This document shows, piece after piece, positions 7,670-28,231 of a DNA stretch of 29,649 bases. Under the pieces are notes generated by a model that was given only the letters and a program-made list of their open reading frames with translations, did not search any database and was not told the DNA's origin. The DNA is taken from the IMG/VR virus record IMGVR_UViG_649989948_000014, positions 1-29,649 of that record; one strand, 5' to 3'. The position numbers were made by a program, and so were the translations under genes. The DNA comes from a virus. Lineage: Duplodnaviria; Heunggongvirae; Uroviricota; Caudoviricetes. Each line of letters opens with the position of its first letter. The first letter of the stretch is position 1.

Positions 7670-7868
7670 CGTAACCTGTCGGATCGCCGGAAAGGACCCG
7701 CAAAATGATAATAATTATCATCTGCATGTCACAACGTGCATCTACGCCATCAAACCACGTCAAATAATCAATTATGACGCAGGTATCATATTAATTGATC
7801 TGCATCAACTTAACGTAAAAACAACTTCAGACAATACAAATCAGCGACACTGAATACGGGACAACCTC

Positions 7869-8102
7869 ATGTCAACGAAGAACAGAACCCGCAGAACAAC
7901 AACCCGCAACATCCGCTTTCCTAACCAAATGATTGAACAAATTAACATCGCTCTTGATCAAAAAGGGTCCGGGAATTTCTCAGCCTGGGTCATTGAAGCC
8001 TGCCGCCGGAGACTGTGCTCAGAAAAAAGAGTTTCTCCTGAAGCAAACAAAGAAAAGAGTGACATTACTGAATTGCTCAGAAAACAGATCAGACCAGATT
8101 GA
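7869..8102 (+). CDS. small DNA-binding-like protein, YlcI/YnfO (DUF3950)-like, possible ribbon-helix-helix fold
   Basis: 77-aa ORF with RNIRFPNQMIEQINIALDQKGSGNFSAWVIEACRRRL; sits next to cos as ylcI does next to the terminase genes in DLP12; family assignment from memory. Confidence 0.4.
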   Translation: MSTKNRTRRTTTRNIRFPNQMIEQINIALDQKGSGNFSAWVIEACRRRLCSEKRVSPEANKEKSDITELLRKQIRPD

Positions 8103-8143
8103 AGCAATTTAGATAATCGTGCAGACTACGCCCCTCATATCAC

Positions 8144-8569
8144 ATGGAAGGTACTACAATGGCTCAGGTTGCCATTTTTAAACAAATATTCGATAAAGTG
8201 AGAAATAATTTAAACTATCACTGGTTTTATTCTGAACTAAAACGTCACAATGTCTCACATTACATTTACTATTTAGCCACAGAGAATATTCATCTTGTTC
8301 TTGAAAACGATAATACGGTTTTAATAAAAGGACAGGGTAAGGTTGTAAATGTAAGATTTTCAAAAAATAAATGCCTTATAGAAGCCACCTTAAAAGGATT
8401 CAAATCAGGAGAGTTATCATTTTACGAATACAGGAAAAATCTTGCTACAGCAGGGGTTTTCAGATGGATTACAAATATCCACGAAAACAAAAGGTATTAC
8501 TATACCTTTGATAATTCATTACTCTTTACTGAGAACATTCAGAACACTACACAAATATTTCCGCACTAA
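8144..8569 (+). CDS. hypothetical protein (141 aa), AT-rich, downstream partner of the RHH-like gene
   Basis: Uninterrupted ORF 41 bp after the previous gene on the same strand; low-GC codon usage unlike the lambda backbone; no motif recognised. Confidence 0.4.
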
Positions 8570-11120: not shown

Positions 11121-11547
11121 TAAGCTGTGTGACGAAGTAACCACTCTTAACAGCATAACCAATTTTTTACGTACGTAAACCACTAAATGATATTTGCGAG
11201 AATGCTACCGAGTATTGAAAACACCACTACAAATACATAAGCAAATCTCAACAAATAACCAACAAATAATTTCCAGCGTTATTTTTAGCTGGTTTAAATT
11301 GAACCTTCAAATTATAGAGCACTTATAAATAACAGCCATTAATATAAATTGGCTAATAGATTTATTTTTATTCAGCCAAGAGCCATGAATAGGATTCGAT
11401 AGAAAAAGTTCAGATAAAAATAGAGATCTACTTCACAAATCAAATGAGAAACCAAAACTTACATCTTGAAATAATCACATTGATTAGATGAATATTTATC
11501 GCGCAGTGACATCATTTTTTAATAATAGTTCAAAAAAAGGGCTCACG

Positions 11548-12630
11548 ATGAAAAAATTAACAGTGGCAATTTCTGCTGTAGCTGCATCAGTACTGATGGC
11601 GATGTCTGCTCAGGCAGCTGAAATTTATAATAAAGACAGTAACAAGCTGGATCTGTACGGGAAAGTTAATGCTAAGCACTACTTCTCCTCTAATGATGCA
11701 GATGATGGTGATACTACTTATGCCCGTCTTGGCTTCAAAGGTGAAACCCAAATCAACGATCAACTGACTGGTTTCGGTCAGTGGGAATATGAATTCAAAG
11801 GCAACCGCGCTGAATCTCAAGGTTCCTCCAAAGATAAAACCCGTCTTGCCTTCGCTGGCCTGAAATTCGGTGACTACGGCTCCATCGATTATGGCCGTAA
11901 CTACGGTGTAGCATACGATATTGGTGCATGGACCGACGTTCTGCCAGAATTCGGTGGCGATACCTGGACCCAAACAGATGTATTCATGACTGGTCGCACC
12001 ACAGGTGTTGCAACTTATCGTAACAATGACTTCTTTGGTCTGGTTGATGGTCTGAACTTTGCTGCTCAGTATCAGGGTAAAAATGACCGCACTGACGTAA
12101 CTGAAGCTAATGGTGATGGTTTCGGTTTCTCCACTACTTATGAGTATGAAGGATTCGGTGTAGGTGCAACCTATGCTAAATCTGACCGCACTAATAATCA
12201 GGTTATCTACGGTAACAACAGCCTGAATGCATCTGGTCAAAATGCTGAAGTATGGGCAGCTGGTCTGAAATATGATGCGAACAACATCTATCTGGCTACC
12301 ACCTATTCTGAAACCCAGAACATGACTGTTTTTGGTAATAACCATATTGCCAACAAAGCACAAAACTTCGAAGTAGTTGCACAATATCAGTTCGACTTCG
12401 GTCTGCGTCCGTCCGTTGCTTACCTGCAATCTAAAGGAAAAGACTTGGGTGCGTGGGGTGATCAGGACCTGGTTGAATATATTGATGTAGGTGCAACCTA
12501 TTACTTCAACAAAAATATGTCCACTTTTGTTGATTACAAAATCAACCTGATTGATAAGAGCGATTTCACGAAAGCATCTGGCGTTGCTACCGATGATATC
12601 GTTGCTGTAGGTATGGTTTACCAGTTCTAA
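11548..12630 (+). CDS. nmpC: outer membrane porin, NmpC/OmpD-type, apparently intact
   Basis: ORF 11488..12630; from the internal Met: [46 protein letters not shown]...GMVYQF (signal peptide, C-terminal aromatic residue); opposite strand to Q and the lysis genes, as nmpC is in DLP12. Confidence 0.9.
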
Positions 12631-14884: not shown

Positions 14885-15667
14885 TTAGGCGCAATACAAA
14901 GGATCATTAGCAGCTCTAATACCGCCCTGAATCGCAAGCCCTGTATGGCAATTTGACATTGAGCATGATTGCCATCTGTGCAAGGGACCTCCATTAATCG
15001 AAACTTCCAGCAGATCTTTATCTCCTTTCATCCTGACCCCTTCATACAACATATCAAGACGCTCAACAATCAATCCTGTTGGAGGTTCCATTTTTAGAAC
15101 GAGGGCAAACTCTCCTGGCCCACGTCGTATTGTTATACGCGGGCCGGTACACTCCACATCCCAATTGTCTGATTTAGCTTTCCATTCATTTTCATCTATC
15201 AGTAAAGTCTCCTTACCAATAGAATTACAGAAAATTCCTGATAAAAGCATCGGTCCATGTGGTATGGGTGAAGGTTTCACAGAAAGAATGGGTTGTTCGT
15301 TGACTACAATCAAATTTTGACAGTTATGAAACGTCACTCCTGCAAATTTTACTGTTATAGGCTCATTATGAAAATCAAACATTTCATTTGCAAAACCAGC
15401 CTGTAAGCACTTGGGATTTCTGTCAGCTATTTCCACTGTCTGTGCTGAAAGTCTACCACGAGCTCTTTTTTGATTGCATTGGGAGCAAAGAAGTGTCATT
15501 CCATTCGGATCATGTACTTTGGCATCAACGAAGTCAGGTTTAAAATGCTCATAATCATAAAATCCAAATCCACAAATTACACAGCCAAAGCCGCACCTTT
15601 GCCTTATCTGACGTTTTATTGTCTCAGGTATTCTTCTTGAGAGCCCGTGTTTATTAATATTGTCCAT
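14885..15667 (-). CDS. HNH-motif (His-Me finger) nuclease-like protein with uncharacterised ~190-aa C-terminal domain
   Basis: 260-aa ORF; N-terminus CGFGCVICGFGFYDYEHFKPDFVDAKVHDPNGMTLLCSQCNQKR has two CxxC pairs bracketing conserved His and Asn; AT-rich codon usage; rest unrecognised. Confidence 0.6.
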   Translation of the reverse strand: MDNINKHGLSRRIPETIKRQIRQRCGFGCVICGFGFYDYEHFKPDFVDAKVHDPNGMTLLCSQCNQKRARGRLSAQTVEIADRNPKCLQAGFANEMFDFHNEPITVKFAGVTFHNCQNLIVVNEQPILSVKPSPIPHGPMLLSGIFCNSIGKETLLIDENEWKAKSDNWDVECTGPRITIRRGPGEFALVLKMEPPTGLIVERLDMLYEGVRMKGDKDLLEVSINGGPLHRWQSCSMSNCHTGLAIQGGIRAANDPLYCA

Positions 15668-15841
15668 ATGGTTAGTACGCTATAAGTTTGTTTCTATAAT
15701 TTTACCACAATAGATAAGTTTGTATCAGAAATCGCTATATGGAGTGAGCGGAATATTTATATTATTCATGCAATTGCTCTCCCGTACGCAGCCCGCACTT
15801 CCGTCATCGCAGAATGACGGAAGCCTTACTAACTAGCGCCT

Positions 15842-16165
15842 TTATTGAAACAGATTCTGAGGTAAATGCGGCAATACTCGACTCCACTTATCATCCTGCC
15901 ACGGCTGAAGTTTTACATGTGCCGTTTCTCGGACGAGGATTGCTCGCGCTCTGTTGAGTATCTGGGGATATTCTTGCTCGATAGAAGTGAAGCGACCAGC
16001 TTCACGATGCTCCGCAACCTGAAGAAGAGGAGTAACGTTCTGGTAGGTAATTAACATCACATTCCCTGCTCGCCATAACCAGGCGAGTGTGCAAAGTTCG
16101 TTATCAGTGAATTGTTTTGTGATTGGGGATTGTTGAACTGCTAGAACGAGAACGCCAGCATCCAT
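15842..16165 (-). CDS. hypothetical protein (107 aa), upstream of and co-oriented with the HNH-motif gene
   Basis: Uninterrupted ORF between the recombinase and the HNH gene; an overlapping plus-strand ORF (15866..16054) is shorter; no motif recognised. Confidence 0.35.
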   Translation of the reverse strand: MDAGVLVLAVQQSPITKQFTDNELCTLAWLWRAGNVMLITYQNVTPLLQVAEHREAGRFTSIEQEYPQILNRARAILVRETAHVKLQPWQDDKWSRVLPHLPQNLFQ

Positions 16166-16276
16166 TGGCAGTCCCTATAGTAAAACCATAGCTCAGGACG
16201 CTTCGTTCAGGATAGATAATTTTATTGTACTTACCTAACTTTCTTACTATAGCACGGTTGAAAAAGTGATTATTAC

Positions 16277-17803
16277 TCAAAAATAAACCTCACCATCAAC
16301 CATATATTTGAGAGTACTTATCGCCTGCTGGGCAGATATTGTTTTCATTAAAGGATAGTGTTTAAAAACAATGCCATTCATAAAATAGATATCACAGGTT
16401 TTATTATCTGTATTGATTATGATTTTTTCGAATGTTTTATAGGCAAGTGTACGACATAGCTCTCGCCCATTTTTACTGGTTAAGTCAATAGCATGAAAAT
16501 CACCAAGTGAACTCACCGCTTTACTCTTCAAAGTTTTTAATGATACAGAAGCCCTTCGTAATTCCTTATCTAATACTCTGATTTTTTCTGCTATAGCGGT
16601 AACTTCAGGCGCAACAGATAATGCAGCAATTAAATTATTAATTTTCATCTGGAGCTCAATAATTTTCAACTCTAAAGTTTCATTAGCATCTTTCTTGTTT
16701 TCAACTGGTTGGATTTTACTACAATTAAAAAGCAACTCATTAATGATATTATAATCAACCAAATCTCTCTTTATTGATGGCCTGTCACATCGATGCAGTC
16801 TTCTCATCGGACAAACATAATAGCCATGCAAACTTCCAGATACCGCATGAACAATCATGGTATTACCACAAGCCTCGCACTTCATAACTGTTCGAAGTAG
16901 ATTTATCAACATAGGATTTTTGCTACTATTGCTAATACCAAAAGGTGCCAACCGAATTTCCTGCACAGCGTAAAACAAATCATCTGATATGACTCTGGGA
17001 TAATAGCCAGCGATTTCACTTATTCCTTTACCTCTTGCACGATATGAAGGTACGCATATACCTATCAGAGCTTTATTCGCTAATAATTTTTCAATTACAG
17101 AAGGTCCCCATGCACTTTCTTTTCCTGAGAAATTCTTTACAGCATGATCATTTAAATACTTGGCTATTGCATTCAATGAGCGCCTTTCCATCCTGAGTTT
17201 AAAAATTAGCTCAATAGTTTTCACCCTGTCGGGGTCTGGAACAAAAGCCGTTCTTTTGTCATCCAATGAGAGCCATCTCGGACAAGACGCCGTCATAATC
17301 GTGCCTGACTCCAGTGCATCCTGCCGTTTTTTCTTCCATGATAATTTAACCCGACTTGACTTTATCTCGCTTTCTTCATTTGCCCTTTGTGCTATAAGTA
17401 TGGCTTTTATTAATGAATATGGCTCATTCAATGAGTCAATATTATAGACTGTATTATCGCAAAGAGTTATAACATCAATACCGTGATTCAAAATCAATTT
17501 CAGACGCTCAATCGCTTCACCGACTTTTTCTCTTGAAAGTCTGTCCAGACTTTCAACTAACAATGTAGTCCCTGGCAATATATAACCATGTTCTATAGCA
17601 TCTAAAAATTCCGAAAAAGCTCCTGATTGTGCATGCTTTCCATTGAATGCGCTTAACCCCAGATCTTCATACGTTACGGTATCAAGGTAATAATCACTAT
17701 TTACCTTTAGCCATTCAGTAATAAGCCTTCTCTGGCGGTTTAATGAATCACCAGACATCTGACCTGGTGATGAAAATCGCATATATGCTATGGCTTTTTT
17801 CAT
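16277..17803 (-). CDS. ybcK: large serine recombinase (YbcK-like)
   Basis: 508-aa ORF; N-terminal resolvase-type motif AIAYMRFSSPGQ (catalytic Ser), C-terminal Cys cluster CEACGNTMIVH...YYVCPMRRLHRC; same size and neighbourhood (next to emrE) as DLP12 ybcK. Confidence 0.85.
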   Translation of the reverse strand: MKKAIAYMRFSSPGQMSGDSLNRQRRLITEWLKVNSDYYLDTVTYEDLGLSAFNGKHAQSGAFSEFLDAIEHGYILPGTTLLVESLDRLSREKVGEAIERLKLILNHGIDVITLCDNTVYNIDSLNEPYSLIKAILIAQRANEESEIKSSRVKLSWKKKRQDALESGTIMTASCPRWLSLDDKRTAFVPDPDRVKTIELIFKLRMERRSLNAIAKYLNDHAVKNFSGKESAWGPSVIEKLLANKALIGICVPSYRARGKGISEIAGYYPRVISDDLFYAVQEIRLAPFGISNSSKNPMLINLLRTVMKCEACGNTMIVHAVSGSLHGYYVCPMRRLHRCDRPSIKRDLVDYNIINELLFNCSKIQPVENKKDANETLELKIIELQMKINNLIAALSVAPEVTAIAEKIRVLDKELRRASVSLKTLKSKAVSSLGDFHAIDLTSKNGRELCRTLAYKTFEKIIINTDNKTCDIYFMNGIVFKHYPLMKTISAQQAISTLKYMVDGEVYF

Positions 17804-18058
17804 GGTGACACCTGCTAAAGTATGCTTTTATAAACCTTAGTGGTGAGATATGATTTTTGTTTAATTTTTATTTAAAAAGACAATTAAGGTCACATTATCT
17901 TGAATATACAACAATAATCGTATTGCAATTTTCTTACACCATAATCTTGAAAGCACAAAAGAATGAATAAAAACTAAAGACATTAACAAAAAGCATAAAA
18001 CGAGGCCCATATAAATATACGAGCCTCCATATTTTAGTCGTTTAAAAACAAATTATTT

Positions 18059-18391
18059 TTAATGTGGTGTGCTTCGTGACAATAAATTAATAACCAACAC
18101 ACCGGCACAAATCAACATCATGCCTATAATGGCTGGCAGGTCCAACCGTTGGCCGAAAAATCCCCATGATAGTAAGCTAATCAGGACAATACCGACTCCT
18201 GACCAGATAGCATAAGCAATCCCTGTAGGAATATAAGCCAGCGTCTGAGCTAATAACCAGAATGATGCACAATAACAAATAATTGTACCAACAGATGGCC
18301 ATAACCGTGTAAAACCTTCTGAAAACTTCATTAAGGTTGTACCAATGACCTCTGCAAGTATTGCACCACCAAGATAAATATAAGGATTCAT
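18059..18391 (-). CDS. emrE: small multidrug resistance efflux transporter EmrE
   Basis: ORF 18059..18445; from the internal Met MNPYIYLGGAILAEVIGTTLMKFSEGFTRLWPSVGTIICYCASFWLLAQTLAYIPTGIAYAIWSGVGIVLISLLSWGFFGQRLDLPAIIGMMLICAGVLVINLLSRSTPH (110 aa, four TM) matches EmrE. Confidence 0.92.
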   Translation of the reverse strand: MNPYIYLGGAILAEVIGTTLMKFSEGFTRLWPSVGTIICYCASFWLLAQTLAYIPTGIAYAIWSGVGIVLISLLSWGFFGQRLDLPAIIGMMLICAGVLVINLLSRSTPH

Positions 18392-23284: not shown

Positions 23285-24070
23285 ATGAGTACAGCACTCG
23301 CAACGCTGGCAGGGAAGCTGGCTGAACGTGTCGGCATGGATTCTGTCGACCCACAGGAACTGATCACCACTCTTCGCCAGACGGCATTTAAAGGTGATGC
23401 CAGCGATGCGCAGTTCATCGCATTGTTGATCGTCGCCAACCAGTACGGCCTTAATCCGTGGACGAAAGAAATTTACGCCTTCCCTGATAAGCAGAACGGC
23501 ATCGTTCCGGTGGTGGGCGTTGATGGCTGGTCCCGCATCATCAATGAAAACCAGCAGTTTGATGGCATGGACTTTGAGCAGGACAATGAATCCTGTACAT
23601 GCCGGATTTACCGCAAGGACCGTAATCATCCGATCTGCGTTACCGAGTGGATGGATGAATGCCGCCGCGAACCATTCAAAACCCGCGAAGGCAGAGAAAT
23701 CACCGGACCGTGGCAGTCGCATCCCAAACGGATGTTACGGCATAAAGCCATGATTCAGTGTGCCCGTCTGGCCTTCGGATTTGCTGGTATCTATGACAAG
23801 GATGAAGCCGAGCGCATTGTCGAAAATACCGCATACACTGCAGAACGTCAGCCAGAACGCGACATCACTCCGGTTAACGATGAAACCATGCAGGAGATTA
23901 ACACTCTGCTGATCGCCCTGGATAAAACATGGGATGACGACTTATTGCCGCTCTGTTCCCAGATATTTCGCCGCGACATTCGCGCATCGTCAGAACTGAC
24001 ACAGGCCGAAGCAGTGAAAGCTCTTGGATTCCTGAAACAGAAAGCCACTGAGCAGAAGGTGGCAGCATGA
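23285..24070 (+). CDS. bet: Bet (Red-beta) single-strand annealing recombinase
   Basis: 261-aa [69 protein letters not shown]... matches lambda Bet. Confidence 0.97.
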
Positions 24071-25090: not shown

Positions 25091-25382
25091 CAACCACGGA
25101 ATGCATTTTTCTGGCAGCGGGCTTCATATTCTGTGTGCTTATGCTTGCCGACATGGGACTTGTTCAATGACACCTCAGCAGGAAAACGCCCTTCGCAGCA
25201 TTGCCCGTCAGGCTAATTCTGAAATCAAAAAAGCCAGACAGCAGTTTCCGGATAAAAACGTCGATGACATTTGCCGTAGCGTACTGAAGAAGCACCGCGA
25301 AACGGTAACGCTGATGGGATTCACACCGACTCATTTAAGCCTGGCAATCGGCATGTTAAACGGCGTCTTTAAGGAACGATGA
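25071..25382 (+). CDS. early-left small ORF at the lambda orf61 position (start uncertain; internal Met near 25167)
   Basis: 103-aa ORF overlapping the orf63 stop; internal Met gives MTPQQENALRSIARQANSEIKKARQQFPDKNVDDICRSVLKKHRETVTLMGFTPTHLSLAIGMLNGVFKER. Confidence 0.4.
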   Translation: MRETRYDNHGMHFSGSGLHILCAYACRHGTCSMTPQQENALRSIARQANSEIKKARQQFPDKNVDDICRSVLKKHRETVTLMGFTPTHLSLAIGMLNGVFKER

Positions 25383-25480
25383 ACATGAAAAGCAAAATCA
25401 TCAGGGAGCTACAGGCTCCTTTTTTATTATTCGCATTCACCCTCAAGCGTATTAACCAACAATTCAGGGATTAATAGAAG

Positions 25481-25702
25481 ATGGCAGACATCATTGATTC
25501 AGCATCAGAAATTGAAGAATTACAGCGCAACACAGCAATAAAAATGCGCCGCCTGAACCACCAGGCTATATCTGCCACTCATTGTTGTGAGTGTGGCGAT
25601 CCGATAGATGAACGAAGACGCCTGGTCGTTCAGGGTTGTCGGACTTGTGCAAGTTGCCAGGAGGATCTGGAGCTTATCAGTAAACAGAGAGGTTCGAAGT
25701 GA
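25481..25702 (+). CDS. TraR/DksA-family C4 zinc-finger protein (lambda Orf73-like)
   Basis: 73-aa ORF MADIIDSASEIEELQRNTAIKMRRLNHQAISATHCCECGDPIDERRRLVVQGCRTCASCQEDLELI with CxxC...CxxC zinc finger. Confidence 0.8.
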   Translation: MADIIDSASEIEELQRNTAIKMRRLNHQAISATHCCECGDPIDERRRLVVQGCRTCASCQEDLELISKQRGSK

Positions 25703-25854
25703 GCGAAATTAACTAGAAGCCAAAGATAAAATCATCGCTGAGCAGGAGAAAATCGCTAACGGAGAAAAGACAGTAAGTCAGTATATGAAAACCGCATGAT
25801 ATCATCAGATAAAAATCGGTCGTAAAGCGAAATATTAATACCAGAACAAACGAG

Positions 25855-25878
25855 TCGAGGTAAATTATATTACCTCGA
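25855..25878. terminator. hairpin between the convergent TraR-like and membrane-protein genes
   Basis: TCGAGGTA aattatat TACCTCGA perfect 8-bp inverted repeat in an AT-rich spacer; no strong U-run, so terminator function is tentative. Confidence 0.3.
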
Positions 25879-25912
25879 TAAATTAACTAAAACTTGCCCG
25901 CTATATACTATA

Positions 25913-26515
25913 TCATTCAGTATCATCACGCGCGGTCTGTGCATATGTCACTACCGCACCTAATATATTAATTTTCTTTTCAACATAGATAATATTATCG
26001 TACTCATAATTGCCATACGGATAGCAAATGCGAATATTCTCATGTAGATCGGGGTCATCCACCTCAGCTCCAGAACAACTTTTTGAACTACCGGAAGTAT
26101 ACCGATACGGTGCAACATAAGACGATGTCTCTCCAGGCAAAAAATAAGTTAGTGTCGTAAGGGGTATAATCAGAAAAAATCCAGCAAATATGCACATCCC
26201 TGCATAAACCTTAAGGTATGCTGACAGACTCTTCCAGCCTCTTTGTTTTACTATCCCCTTCTTAACCCAAAACAGAGATAACAGAAAAGCTATTCCCATG
26301 CTAAACAGAATGTAATAGTGGGATATACTCTGATTAAGAAACGTGACCCTGTAGATATCTGCCCGCCACCAGAAGAAAAGGAAAATAAAGATCAGCCCTG
26401 AAACTGTCATGCAAATCAAATAAGGATACGAATCTTTTTTCATGTTTAGCGCCCATAAAATTTTTCCTGACCCGGACAAATTTACCATCCATTTTTTGCG
26501 CAGAAAATAGCTCAT
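25913..26515 (-). CDS. multi-pass inner-membrane protein of unknown function (start may be an internal Met near 26443)
   Basis: 200-aa ORF on the strand opposite to the surrounding pL operon, very AT-rich; hydrophobic segments LICMTVSGLIFIFLFFWW, YILFSMGIAFLLSLFWV, VYAGMCIFAGFFLIIPLTTLTYFL, then a ~70-aa hydrophilic C-terminus. Confidence 0.6.
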   Translation of the reverse strand: MSYFLRKKWMVNLSGSGKILWALNMKKDSYPYLICMTVSGLIFIFLFFWWRADIYRVTFLNQSISHYYILFSMGIAFLLSLFWVKKGIVKQRGWKSLSAYLKVYAGMCIFAGFFLIIPLTTLTYFLPGETSSYVAPYRYTSGSSKSCSGAEVDDPDLHENIRICYPYGNYEYDNIIYVEKKINILGAVVTYAQTARDDTE

Positions 26516-26757
26516 TACTTACTGCACAATAATACACAAAATTGCGTAAATTTTTTGCATGGATTTTAGCTCTTTCAGCCGAAATTTAAGGGGTAAATAG
26601 CATTTCCTAAAAGCAACTGCACCAACCCAACAGAATGGGCTACCGCTTACGTTGAGAGCAAAAAAGTGTATAGCAGCAATGAACAGCATCCTCGCACTGA
26701 CGAGGATTTCTTTTATCTGAACTCGCTACGGCGGGTTTTGTTTTATGGAGATGATAA

Positions 26758-26925
26758 ATGCACTTCCGAGTCACAGGTGAATGGAATGGAGAACCATTCA
26801 ACAGAGTTATCGAAGCCGAGAACATCAGCGACTGCTATGACCACTGGATGCTGTGGGCGCAGATAGCACATGCAGACGTAACCAATATTCGAATTGAAGA
26901 ACTGAAAGAACACCAAGCCGCCTGA
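26758..26925 (+). CDS. small ORF (~55 aa) directly upstream of xis
   Basis: Hand translation MHFRVTGEWNGEPFNRVIEAENISDCYDHWMLWAQIAHADVTNIRIEELKEHQAA; below the ORF-track cutoff; my hand count showed a 2-nt inconsistency, so the frame needs checking. Confidence 0.3.
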   Translation: MHFRVTGEWNGEPFNRVIEAENISDCYDHWMLWAQIAHADVTNIRIEELKEHQAA

Positions 26926-26940
26926 TGGCGGTTTTTTCTT
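26917..26940 (+). terminator. intrinsic terminator-like hairpin just upstream of xis
   Basis: GCCGCC tgat GGCGGT followed by TTTTTTCTT on the plus strand. Confidence 0.45.
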
Positions 26941-26964
26941 GCGTGTAATTGCGGAGACTTTGCG

Positions 26965-27183
26965 ATGTACTTGACACTTCAGGAGTGGAACGCACGCCAG
27001 CGACGCCCAAGAAGCCTTGAAACAGTTCGTCGATGGGTACGCGAGTGCAGGATATTCCCTCCTCCGGTTAAGGATGGAAGAGAGTATCTGTTCCACGAAT
27101 CAGCGGTAAAGGTTGACTTAAATCGACCAGTAACAGGTAGCCTTTTGAAGAGGATCAGAAATGGGAAGAAGGCGAAGTCATGA
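26965..27183 (+). CDS. xis: excisionase Xis
   Basis: 72-aa ORF MYLTLQEWNARQRRPRSLETVRRWVRECRIFPPPVKDGREYLFHESAVKVDLNRPVTGSLLKRIRNGKKAKS matches lambda Xis; overlaps the int start. Confidence 0.96.
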   Translation: MYLTLQEWNARQRRPRSLETVRRWVRECRIFPPPVKDGREYLFHESAVKVDLNRPVTGSLLKRIRNGKKAKS

Positions 27184-28231
27184 GCGCCGGGATTTACCCC
27201 CTAACCTTTATATAAGAAACAATGGATATTACTGCTACAGGGACCCAAGGACGGGTAAAGAGTTTGGATTAGGCAGAGACAGGCGAATCGCAATCACTGA
27301 AGCCATACAGGCCAACATTGAGTTATTTTCAGGACACAAACACAAGCCTCTGACAGCGAGAATCAACAGTGATAATTCCGTTACGTTACATTCATGGCTT
27401 GATCGCTACGAAAAAATCCTGGCCAGCAGAGGAATCAAGCAGAAGACACTCATAAATTACATGAGCAAAATTAAAGCAATAAGGAGGGGTCTGCCTGATG
27501 CTCCACTTGAAGACATCACCACAAAAGAAATTGCGGCAATGCTCAATGGATACATAGACGAGGGCAAGGCGGCGTCAGCCAAGTTAATCAGATCAACACT
27601 GAGCGATGCATTCCGAGAGGCAATAGCTGAAGGCCATATAACAACAAACCCTGTCGCTGCCACTCGCGCAGCAAAATCAGAGGTAAGGAGATCAAGACTT
27701 ACGGCTGACGAATACCTGAAAATTTATCAAGCAGCAGAATCATCACCATGTTGGCTCAGACTTGCAATGGAACTGGCTGTTGTTACCGGGCAACGAGTTG
27801 GTGATTTATGCGAAATGAAGTGGTCTGATATCGTAGATGGATATCTTTATGTCGAGCAAAGCAAAACAGGCGTAAAAATTGCCATCCCAACAGCATTGCA
27901 TGTTGATGCTCTCGGAATATCAATGAAGGAAACACTTGATAAATGCAAAGAGATTCTTGGCGGAGAAACCATAATTGCATCTACTCGTCGCGAACCGCTT
28001 TCATCCGGCACAGTATCAAGGTATTTTATGCGCGCACGAAAAGCATCAGGTCTTTCCTTCGAAGGGGATCCGCCTACCTTTCACGAGTTGCGCAGTTTGT
28101 CTGCAAGACTCTATGAGAAGCAGATAAGCGATAAGTTTGCTCAACATCTTCTCGGGCATAAGTCGGACACCATGGCATCACAGTATCGTGATGACAGAGG
28201 CAGGGAGTGGGACAAAATTGAAATCAAATAA
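27161..28231 (+). CDS. int: tyrosine integrase Int
   Basis: 356-aa ORF MGRRRSHERRDLPPNLYIRNNGYYCYRDPRTGKEFGLGRDRRIAITEAIQANIELFSGHKHKPLTARINSDNSVTLHSW... matches lambda Int, with C-terminal catalytic HxxR and Tyr region. Confidence 0.97.
   Translation: MGRRRSHERRDLPPNLYIRNNGYYCYRDPRTGKEFGLGRDRRIAITEAIQANIELFSGHKHKPLTARINSDNSVTLHSWLDRYEKILASRGIKQKTLINYMSKIKAIRRGLPDAPLEDITTKEIAAMLNGYIDEGKAASAKLIRSTLSDAFREAIAEGHITTNPVAATRAAKSEVRRSRLTADEYLKIYQAAESSPCWLRLAMELAVVTGQRVGDLCEMKWSDIVDGYLYVEQSKTGVKIAIPTALHVDALGISMKETLDKCKEILGGETIIASTRREPLSSGTVSRYFMRARKASGLSFEGDPPTFHELRSLSARLYEKQISDKFAQHLLGHKSDTMASQYRDDRGREWDKIEIK

Follow-up and report, generated by a model that had tools for sequence, protein, structure and literature searches.

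Our analysis of a 29,649-nucleotide (nt) stretch of phage DNA (IMG/VR record IMGVR_UViG_649989948_000014, positions 1 to 29,649; hereafter the window) indicates that a minus-strand open reading frame (ORF) at 25913-26515, which lies between a TraR-like gene and xis, contains a real gene for a three-helix membrane protein of 176 amino acids (aa), and that this gene moves between lambdoid and P2-like prophages as a small cassette. We speculate, with a probability that we would put at about 0.4, that the gene is a moron expressed in lysogens, whose product acts in the cell envelope to exclude superinfecting phages at genome entry. An initial annotation of the window had suggested superinfection exclusion or abortive infection for this gene, and judged from the sequence a role in blocking incoming phages is plausible.

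The proposed mechanism would work as follows. The cassette is inserted in a lambdoid prophage of the 434/mEp332 type, where it occupies the accessory region between exo and xis and faces against the pL early operon. In a lysogen, in which pL is repressed, it would be transcribed from its own extended -10 promoter, while during lytic growth convergent early transcription would cross it antisense. The 176-aa protein would have a cytoplasmic N-terminus, three transmembrane (TM) helices and a disulfide-stabilized 75-aa beta-barrel projecting into the periplasm. This barrel would bind the ejection, tape-measure or tail-tip apparatus of the incoming phage, or a host inner-membrane component of DNA translocation, and such binding would block genome entry without killing the cell. 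What suggests an exclusion factor acting in the envelope is the lack of any cytoplasmic domain in the protein, together with the predicted periplasmic position of its best-conserved part.

The gene and its boundaries

The ORF occupies the slot between exo and xis, flanked by the TraR-like gene on one side and by orf55 and xis on the other; it converges on the TraR-like gene and is oriented against the operon that runs from bet and exo through xis to int, so that its position and strand are as initially annotated. The frame is indeed open for 200 codons, but the conserved coding sequence (CDS) is shorter, and most likely extends over 176 codons from Met25 (25913-26443, minus strand, with the start at 26443 and the stop codon at 25913-25915). 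Four points argue for this model. All homologs beyond the closest E. coli clade begin at the equivalent of Met25 (MKKxSYP...) and are 169-180 aa long. In strain EC9, TAG replaces TGG at 26490 within the 24-codon extension. In the P2-like carriers, DNA matching the extension is conserved, yet it has neither an ATG nor an open frame. Finally, AlphaFold2 (AF2) assigns a predicted local distance difference test score (pLDDT) below 50 to residues 1-25 of the 200-aa form. In EC9, moreover, all five substitutions in the extension fall at codon positions 1 and 2, and the Prokaryotic Genome Annotation Pipeline (PGAP) calls the 176-aa form there. The apparent N-terminal extension (26444-26515), which contains the predicted promoter, is most probably leader DNA that does not code for protein.

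The gene is real: compared with the P2-type copy of E. coli, the ratio of nonsynonymous to synonymous substitution rates (dN/dS) is ~0.12 for the 176-aa gene, which corresponds to purifying selection. Its guanine-plus-cytosine (GC) content of 39% is below that of the window (48.3%) and of bet-exo (52.6%). The foreign composition first noted for this region is thus borne out, but calling the gene very AT-rich overstated the case, since 12% of equally sized segments of this stretch are equally or more AT-rich than the CDS.

An accessory cassette with its own leader and terminator

The view that the gene forms an autonomous accessory cassette, separate from the early operon, is well supported by a conserved leader with an extended -10 element, a hairpin of its own, a foreign composition and a convergent orientation in both lambdoid and P2-like carriers; this is in line with the accessory status originally proposed for it. 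The cassette, ~760 bp of leader, CDS and terminator (25823-26580, minus strand), is common to P2-like prophages. By blastn, it shares 76% identity over 761 nt (26580-25823) with an E. coli P2-like prophage (L030), and this match takes in the CDS together with ~137 nt of leader before it and ~90 nt after it, the latter containing the hairpin. Two Salmonella P2-like loci (L023 and L024) gave shorter blastn matches, in which the leader is common from about 26539-26576. The same cassette is found in two unrelated phage backbones, lambdoid and P2-like; among 214 phage records matching the flanks, five carry it. It is present or absent between syntenic genes and deviates from them in composition, as is characteristic of morons.

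The leader contains a predicted extended -10 element, TGgTAAATT (26479-26487, minus strand), located 44 nt upstream of the ATG, whose TG-n-TAAATT columns are invariant in the lambdoid and P2-like carriers. In three loci (L032, L036 and L008), the upstream sequences, read by eye, contain TGnTAA(A/T/G)TT about 44-50 nt ahead of the ATG, and more distant loci also have equivalent extended -10 motifs, among them the chromosomal copies of Cedecea and Citrobacter; the locus L034 has TACAAT without the TG at the -10 position. The TGnTAAATT motif alone is not rare, and what supports a promoter here is its conservation. No convincing upstream promoter came out of a generic sigma-70 scan, the extended -10 having emerged only from the comparison across loci. 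We infer that TGgTAAATT serves as an extended -10 promoter, with transcription starting near 26472 and a leader of ~29 nt. An invariant TTTTCT (26502-26507, minus strand; alignment columns 79-84), 17 nt upstream of the -10 hexamer, holds the -35 position, to whose consensus it is a poor fit.

Further upstream, at about -50 to -80 from the predicted start, lie three tandem 10-bp units, namely a degenerate TTTACG, TTGTGT and TTGTGC (26524-26549, minus strand). They are perfect ATTGTGCA decamers in P2-like loci (L024 7895-7925, L030 5895-5930) and degenerate in the lambdoid copy, and the Salmonella copy L023 is short of exactly one 10-bp unit. Only 0.04 chance occurrences of the two-unit repeat pattern are expected per window, and the units are possible binding sites for a regulator; of the known boxes of DnaA, CRP, PhoB, OmpR, LexA and mar, none fitted the TTGTGCA units. 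The phage 434 record labels 26526-26539, within these repeats, as a CII site. We rejected a CII-dependent promoter, because these repeats are also present in P2-like phages, which are not known to have a CII, and because the spacing does not suit any -10; the CII label is judged coincidental on the former ground.

On the downstream side, a perfect hairpin with a 9-bp stem and a 6-nt loop (25855-25878; fold z-score -2.9) separates the two convergent genes, as was noticed at the outset. On the minus strand it is followed by the U-rich CTCGTTTGTT, so that the cassette carries a terminator-like element of its own, as morons do, and the hairpin is likely the intrinsic terminator of the minus-strand gene. 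Inspection by eye shows that the E. coli P2-like cassette (L030) keeps the structure, its stem having a single compensatory pair, a single wobble and a single mismatch.

Predicted architecture of the protein

The full-length AF2 model (pLDDT 80.7) consists of three TM helices and a beta-rich C-terminal domain, and hydropathy likewise gives three helices; of the three to four helices initially suggested, the fourth finds no place. In the numbering of the 176-aa protein, TM helix 1 comprises residues 5-31 (26351-26431; AF2 helix 29-55 in 200-aa numbering, hydropathy core 30-50), TM helix 2 residues 38-61 (26261-26332; AF2 helix 62-85, core 66-84), and TM helix 3, which follows a basic, predicted cytoplasmic loop, residues 70-101 (26141-26236; AF2 helix 94-125, core 103-126), all on the minus strand. 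The remaining 75 aa (25916-26140, minus strand) form the C-terminal domain, which is predicted to be periplasmic; modeled alone, it folds into a small five-stranded beta-barrel with a pLDDT of 91.3.

The topology is predicted to be N-in/C-out, with the barrel in the periplasm, because basic residues are concentrated in the N-terminus and in the loop between TM2 and TM3, as the positive-inside rule requires: lysine plus arginine average 4.4 in this loop vs 1.9 in the loop between TM1 and TM2, and the N-terminus is also basic. In this topology the cytoplasmic parts amount to a 5-aa N-terminus and a loop of ~17 aa. The C-terminal domain is under stronger constraint and evolves more slowly than the TM part. 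The sole invariant residues among 24 diverse homologs are its two Cys (C147 and C164 in 200-aa numbering), in the motifs SCSGA and I(R/K)ICxPxG, and this pair would fit a periplasmic disulfide.

Distribution in lambdoid and P2-like prophages

Phages mEp332, 2B8 and 434 match the 1061 bp around the gene at 98.7-99.7% identity, and E. coli MS 145-7 matches them at 100%. When presence is defined as at least 80% of this 1061-bp stretch, 905 out of 5426 complete E. coli genomes carry the gene region. Among these genomes is that with the O157:H7 prophage Sp3, whose copy, annotated as ECs_0804, is likewise identical or almost so. The gene also stays intact in decayed prophages, namely the IS3-truncated prophage of the window, Sp3 and its O157:H7 relatives in which int, bet or exo is a pseudogene, and a prophage remnant of EC9 in which the neighboring phage genes are pseudogenes. 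As a side observation, a 3.5-kb contig (L007, JARKOR010000073.1) of a metagenome-assembled genome (MAG) named "Candidatus Nanosynbacter" encodes proteins 98-100% identical to the prophage segment from bet to the membrane gene; its presence in a Saccharibacteria MAG is almost certainly binning contamination.

Homologs in P2-like prophages, with identities of 78% in E. coli, 71% and 59% in Salmonella, and 55% in Klebsiella michiganensis, always lie between the portal gene gpQ and the replication gene gpA and are convergent with gpA. The gpQ-gpA locus is an anti-phage hotspot that harbors old/tin and several validated defense systems (Rousset 2022, PMC9122126). System 4 in Table S5B of the same study, a 181-aa protein without a domain and described as "3 TM", is its fourth most frequent entry, with 470 occurrences (PMC9122126). 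The window protein matches it by BLASTP at 51% identity over 168 aa (E = 2e-56). The family is thus already catalogued through system 4, and relatives of the window protein are among the commonest occupants of the P2 hotspot, which was defined by experiment. In the hotspot of a Klebsiella P2-like prophage (L034 2281-5623), genes for an AAA_16 protein of 790 aa and a protein of 279 aa occur along with the homolog, and may themselves constitute a defense system.

A small family limited to Enterobacterales

Searches of Pfam, NCBIfam and PADLOC assigned no family to the protein, nor to the 24 homologs except for scattered sub-threshold matches of single members. When 1.84 billion cluster representatives were searched with a profile, 61 proteins were retrieved; those of full length have a single architecture in common, and the others are fragments, apart from one outlier. 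This outlier (P0172, 3074 aa) is a repetitive surface protein matching a short Cys-containing stretch, and was dismissed as a chance match. No relative was found by a sequence-profile search of the PDB, Foldseek against BFVD gave nothing with E < 0.009, the motifs of the protein were unmatched in the supplement of the preprint of Vassallo et al., and an Rfam scan of 25300-27100 had no match. Homology to a housekeeping transporter, which the initial annotation had named as an outcome that would speak against its proposal, was likewise not seen, there being no transporter match in Pfam or NCBIfam and no sequence relatives in the PDB. By these searches, the family is small, limited to Enterobacterales and without an assigned structural class.

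One profile did match strongly: PHROG 1416, of "unknown function" (E = 7.1e-51), aligned residues 113-200, the C-terminal 88 aa, with its positions 1-88 of 90. This profile models only the C-terminal part, corresponding to widespread 112-aa alleles of the P2-type homolog in E. coli (P0075, P0077 and P0084), which are N-terminally truncated and lack TM1 and TM2. They start at an internal GTG (VKQSGW read as MKQSGW), occur on at least 1000 contigs, and suggest either frequent decay or a recombination breakpoint within the gene.

Exclusion at genome entry or another function

Several observations weigh against a function in exclusion. The gpQ-gpA hotspot also carries partition systems and cytolethal distending toxin, and system 4, while catalogued, does not figure among the systems tabulated as evaluated for defense (PMC9122126). 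The scan of PADLOC-DB v2 gave zero families at E <= 1, no structural neighbor stood above noise (the matches of the full-length model are TM noise), literature searches turned up no paper on this protein family, and no homology was found to the exclusion protein SieA of P22 (hhalign probability 0.14%, E = 0.4). The commonness of the truncated 112-aa alleles in E. coli implies that the gene is often dispensable. Regarding expression, the Shine-Dalgarno sequence ahead of Met25 is weak in the lambdoid clade, and the case for the promoter consists of a consensus and its conservation. Moreover, homologs are found in ordinary chromosomal or megaplasmid contexts, at loci that differ by genus, and these suggest a cellular role in which phages are not necessarily involved.

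This last point leads to the rival that survives best, namely that the protein has nothing to do with phage defense and instead acts in the envelope or in host fitness, delivered by lysogenic conversion and serving, for example, stress tolerance, transporter modulation or envelope homeostasis. Resident homologs outside phages occur in at least seven genera at varied loci. The Enterobacter gene lies 16 nt past a LysR gene on the same strand, beside a GGDEF gene, and has no phage-type leader; a Klebsiella chromosomal homolog lies beside a bgl-type phosphotransferase system (PTS) and a LysR gene; those of Cedecea and Pseudescherichia are near yccA; that of Citrobacter adjoins rstB-tus; one in an unclassified Enterobacteriaceae genome adjoins an ECF sigma/anti-sigma pair; that of Serratia directly follows ptsG; and those of Pantoea are on megaplasmids. 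Conservation of the periplasmic domain across genera would suit a host ligand better than a fast-evolving phage ligand, and retention of the gene in dead prophages also favors a benefit to the host. However, chromosomal positions that vary by genus, with no partner gene conserved across the phage and chromosomal contexts examined, are typical of horizontally scattered accessory islets. In addition, the chromosomal copies of Cedecea and Citrobacter retain the phage-type extended -10 leader, and most occurrences are in accessory hotspots of prophages. We regard a purely cellular function as tenable, if doubtful. It should be noted that cross-genus conservation of the periplasmic domain, together with the chromosomal homologs, may mean that the ligand is a conserved host component, and that such a ligand is equally compatible with exclusion through an inner-membrane entry factor and with a function unrelated to phages. 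In Enterobacter, a reverse-transcriptase (RVT_1) gene and a 197-aa gene (L019 1-1238) were also seen ~7 kb from the chromosomal homolog.

PTS permeases are inner-membrane entry factors, ManYZ for lambda and PtsG for HK97. Two of the chromosomal homologs adjoin genes for EIIC of the glucose-family PTS (ptsG in Serratia marcescens L040 3333-5510, and a bgl-type EIIBCA in Klebsiella sp. L027 5882-8543), and it is on account of this adjacency that a PTS permease could be proposed as the target. It would be tempting to see in the protein a novel single-protein family of superinfection exclusion, exchanged between lambdoid and P2-like prophages, whose periplasmic, disulfide-bonded barrel would block genome translocation by occupying a conserved inner-membrane entry component such as a PTS permease. 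In this specific form, the idea is unlikely. The adjacency is a post-hoc lead involving two of ~7 independent chromosomal contexts, and may be a coincidence.

Abortive infection, in which a toxic membrane effector oligomerizes and depolarizes or permeabilizes the inner membrane upon a phage trigger, was the other half of the initial suggestion and is the less likely one. Single or accessory TM proteins do serve as effectors in several defense systems (PMC9122126), and the hotspot location, the AT-richness and the tandem upstream repeats, which might point to tight regulation, would be in keeping with such a role. Nevertheless, the two short cytoplasmic segments leave no room for a sensor domain, there is neither a conserved partner gene nor a match to a PADLOC effector model, and the gene, apparently under a constitutive promoter, is stably maintained in 17% of E. 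coli genomes and resident in the chromosome elsewhere. A block of entry is favored over abortive infection because the protein has no cytoplasmic domain with which to sense infection, and we consider an abortive effector improbable.

The protein is predicted to anchor in the membrane a periplasmic domain whose Cys pair, putatively a disulfide, is conserved, and its orphan gene is scattered on mobile elements. These features might also recall an immunity protein against a toxin acting in the periplasm, be it a bacteriocin resembling colicin M or pesticin or a cell-wall effector of a type VI secretion system; Cmi, for instance, is a membrane-anchored periplasmic immunity protein. Still, none of the ~15 contexts examined contains an adjacent toxin gene, and the protein resembles known immunity proteins neither in sequence nor in fold, so that this explanation appears more improbable still. 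Exclusion at genome entry by a lysogen-expressed envelope protein remains the reading that we prefer.

The putative gene orf56 and the prophage setting

The annotations of phages 434 (CPT_434_35) and mEp332 include a CDS for a 56-aa "putative membrane protein", orf56 (26519-26689, minus strand), upstream of the gene. We regard it as probably not a gene, because a 1-nt deletion frameshifts it in EC9, where its 13 substitutions are spread 5/4/4 over codon positions without a third-position bias, it has no PGAP call and no PHROG match, and it is interrupted in the P2-like cassette and not conserved at distant loci. A two-gene operon, in which a promoter upstream of 26689 would drive this peptide and then a protein of 188-200 aa, is very improbable on the same grounds and on account of the long-ORF extension, which carries a stop in EC9 and is missing from all other clades, even though both CDSs are annotated in records OL657226 and PV340541 (phages 434 and mEp332) and the stop of orf56 lies 3 nt ahead of the ATG at 26515.

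The window as a whole is a defective, mosaic lambdoid prophage, integrated beside ybhC, the lambda attachment site. On the plus strand, the genes are ordered gam, bet (23285-24070), exo, orf60a, orf63, a 72-aa ORF, the TraR/DksA-type gene (25481-25702, with a match to Pfam zf-dskA_traR), orf55 (26758-26925), xis (26965-27183) and int (27161-28231), followed by ybhC. Two successive plus-strand terminators, each a hairpin with a T-run, lie at 26688-26707 and 26719-26738, past the stretch antisense to the cassette and ahead of orf55 and xis, and correspond to tL4 of an old phage 434 record (M60848). They would halt transcripts in the pL direction that are not antiterminated once these have passed antisense across the cassette.

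The left part of the prophage has a DLP12-like late region, and the head genes are truncated by an IS3 element (1-116); gpFI and the major capsid gene are pseudogenes within 1-23000. The late region includes a porin gene (11547-12629), directly upstream of which GC content reaches its minimum of ~32%, and emrE (18058-18390). Further AT-rich patches in the window are at ~7700-8300 and ~15000-16500.

Implications

The gene is very common, being present in roughly a sixth of complete E. coli genomes, phage 434, O157:H7 Sp3 and the P2 hotspot table. If it encodes an exclusion factor, it would affect the prediction of phage host range and the matching of therapeutic phages in E. coli, Salmonella and Klebsiella, and it would add a new protein fold to the few proteins that block entry. 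If, furthermore, entry is blocked through a PTS component, then about one sixth of E. coli genomes, along with phage 434 and O157:H7 Sp3, would hold an unnoticed immunity gene acting at the level of entry. If it is instead a host-fitness factor, it would illustrate that location in a hotspot alone is insufficient to establish a function in defense. Whatever its function, the corrected model, with 176 aa and a predicted promoter within the annotated ORF, and the probably non-coding nature of orf56 matter for cloning or annotating the gene.

Comparison with known systems

The folds with which the C-terminal barrel may be compared are small OB-fold or cold-shock-like beta-barrels and the membrane-associated barrels of DUF1093 (PDB 2ytv, 3npp and 2k5q), with no structural neighbor above noise. 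In organization, the cassette resembles the lambdoid morons in the sense of Juhala and Hendrix, such as lambda bor and lom and HK97 gp15. Like them, it is an extra promoter-gene-terminator unit within a conserved operon, of deviant composition and opposite orientation, and presumably expressed from the repressed prophage; its promoter is predicted, and moron denotes a structural category rather than a function. With regard to the suggested function, phages encode other small proteins of the inner membrane that have parts exposed to the periplasm and block genome entry, namely HK97 gp15 (a classic moron), T4 Imm and T4 Sp. The likeness to the window protein is a general one; none of their Pfam or PHROG families was matched, and folds and sizes differ.

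With system 4 of the P2 hotspot, the window protein has in common its size, the architecture of three TM helices and a C-terminal domain, and the motifs CSGA...ICYPxG, and the homology is full-length. Unlike system 4, the window copy lies in the exo-xis region of a lambdoid prophage rather than between gpA and gpQ, where homologs of 55-78% identity do sit. Membership in system 4 carries no information on function.

The closest functional analogue of the proposed activity is SieA of P22, a 162-164-aa inner-membrane protein with three TM helices and its own promoter, which blocks DNA injection and for which a single gene suffices (PMC10883804). SieA has neither a C-terminal beta-barrel nor a conserved Cys pair, its motif FxRYPxEAxxFNK is absent from the alignments of the window-protein family, and its function has been demonstrated, whereas the exclusion role of the window protein is proposed from sequence and models. 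The two are nevertheless alike in length (~160-176 aa), in their three predicted TM helices and inner-membrane location, in having a promoter of their own (predicted here), and in an orientation opposite to that of the neighboring phage genes.

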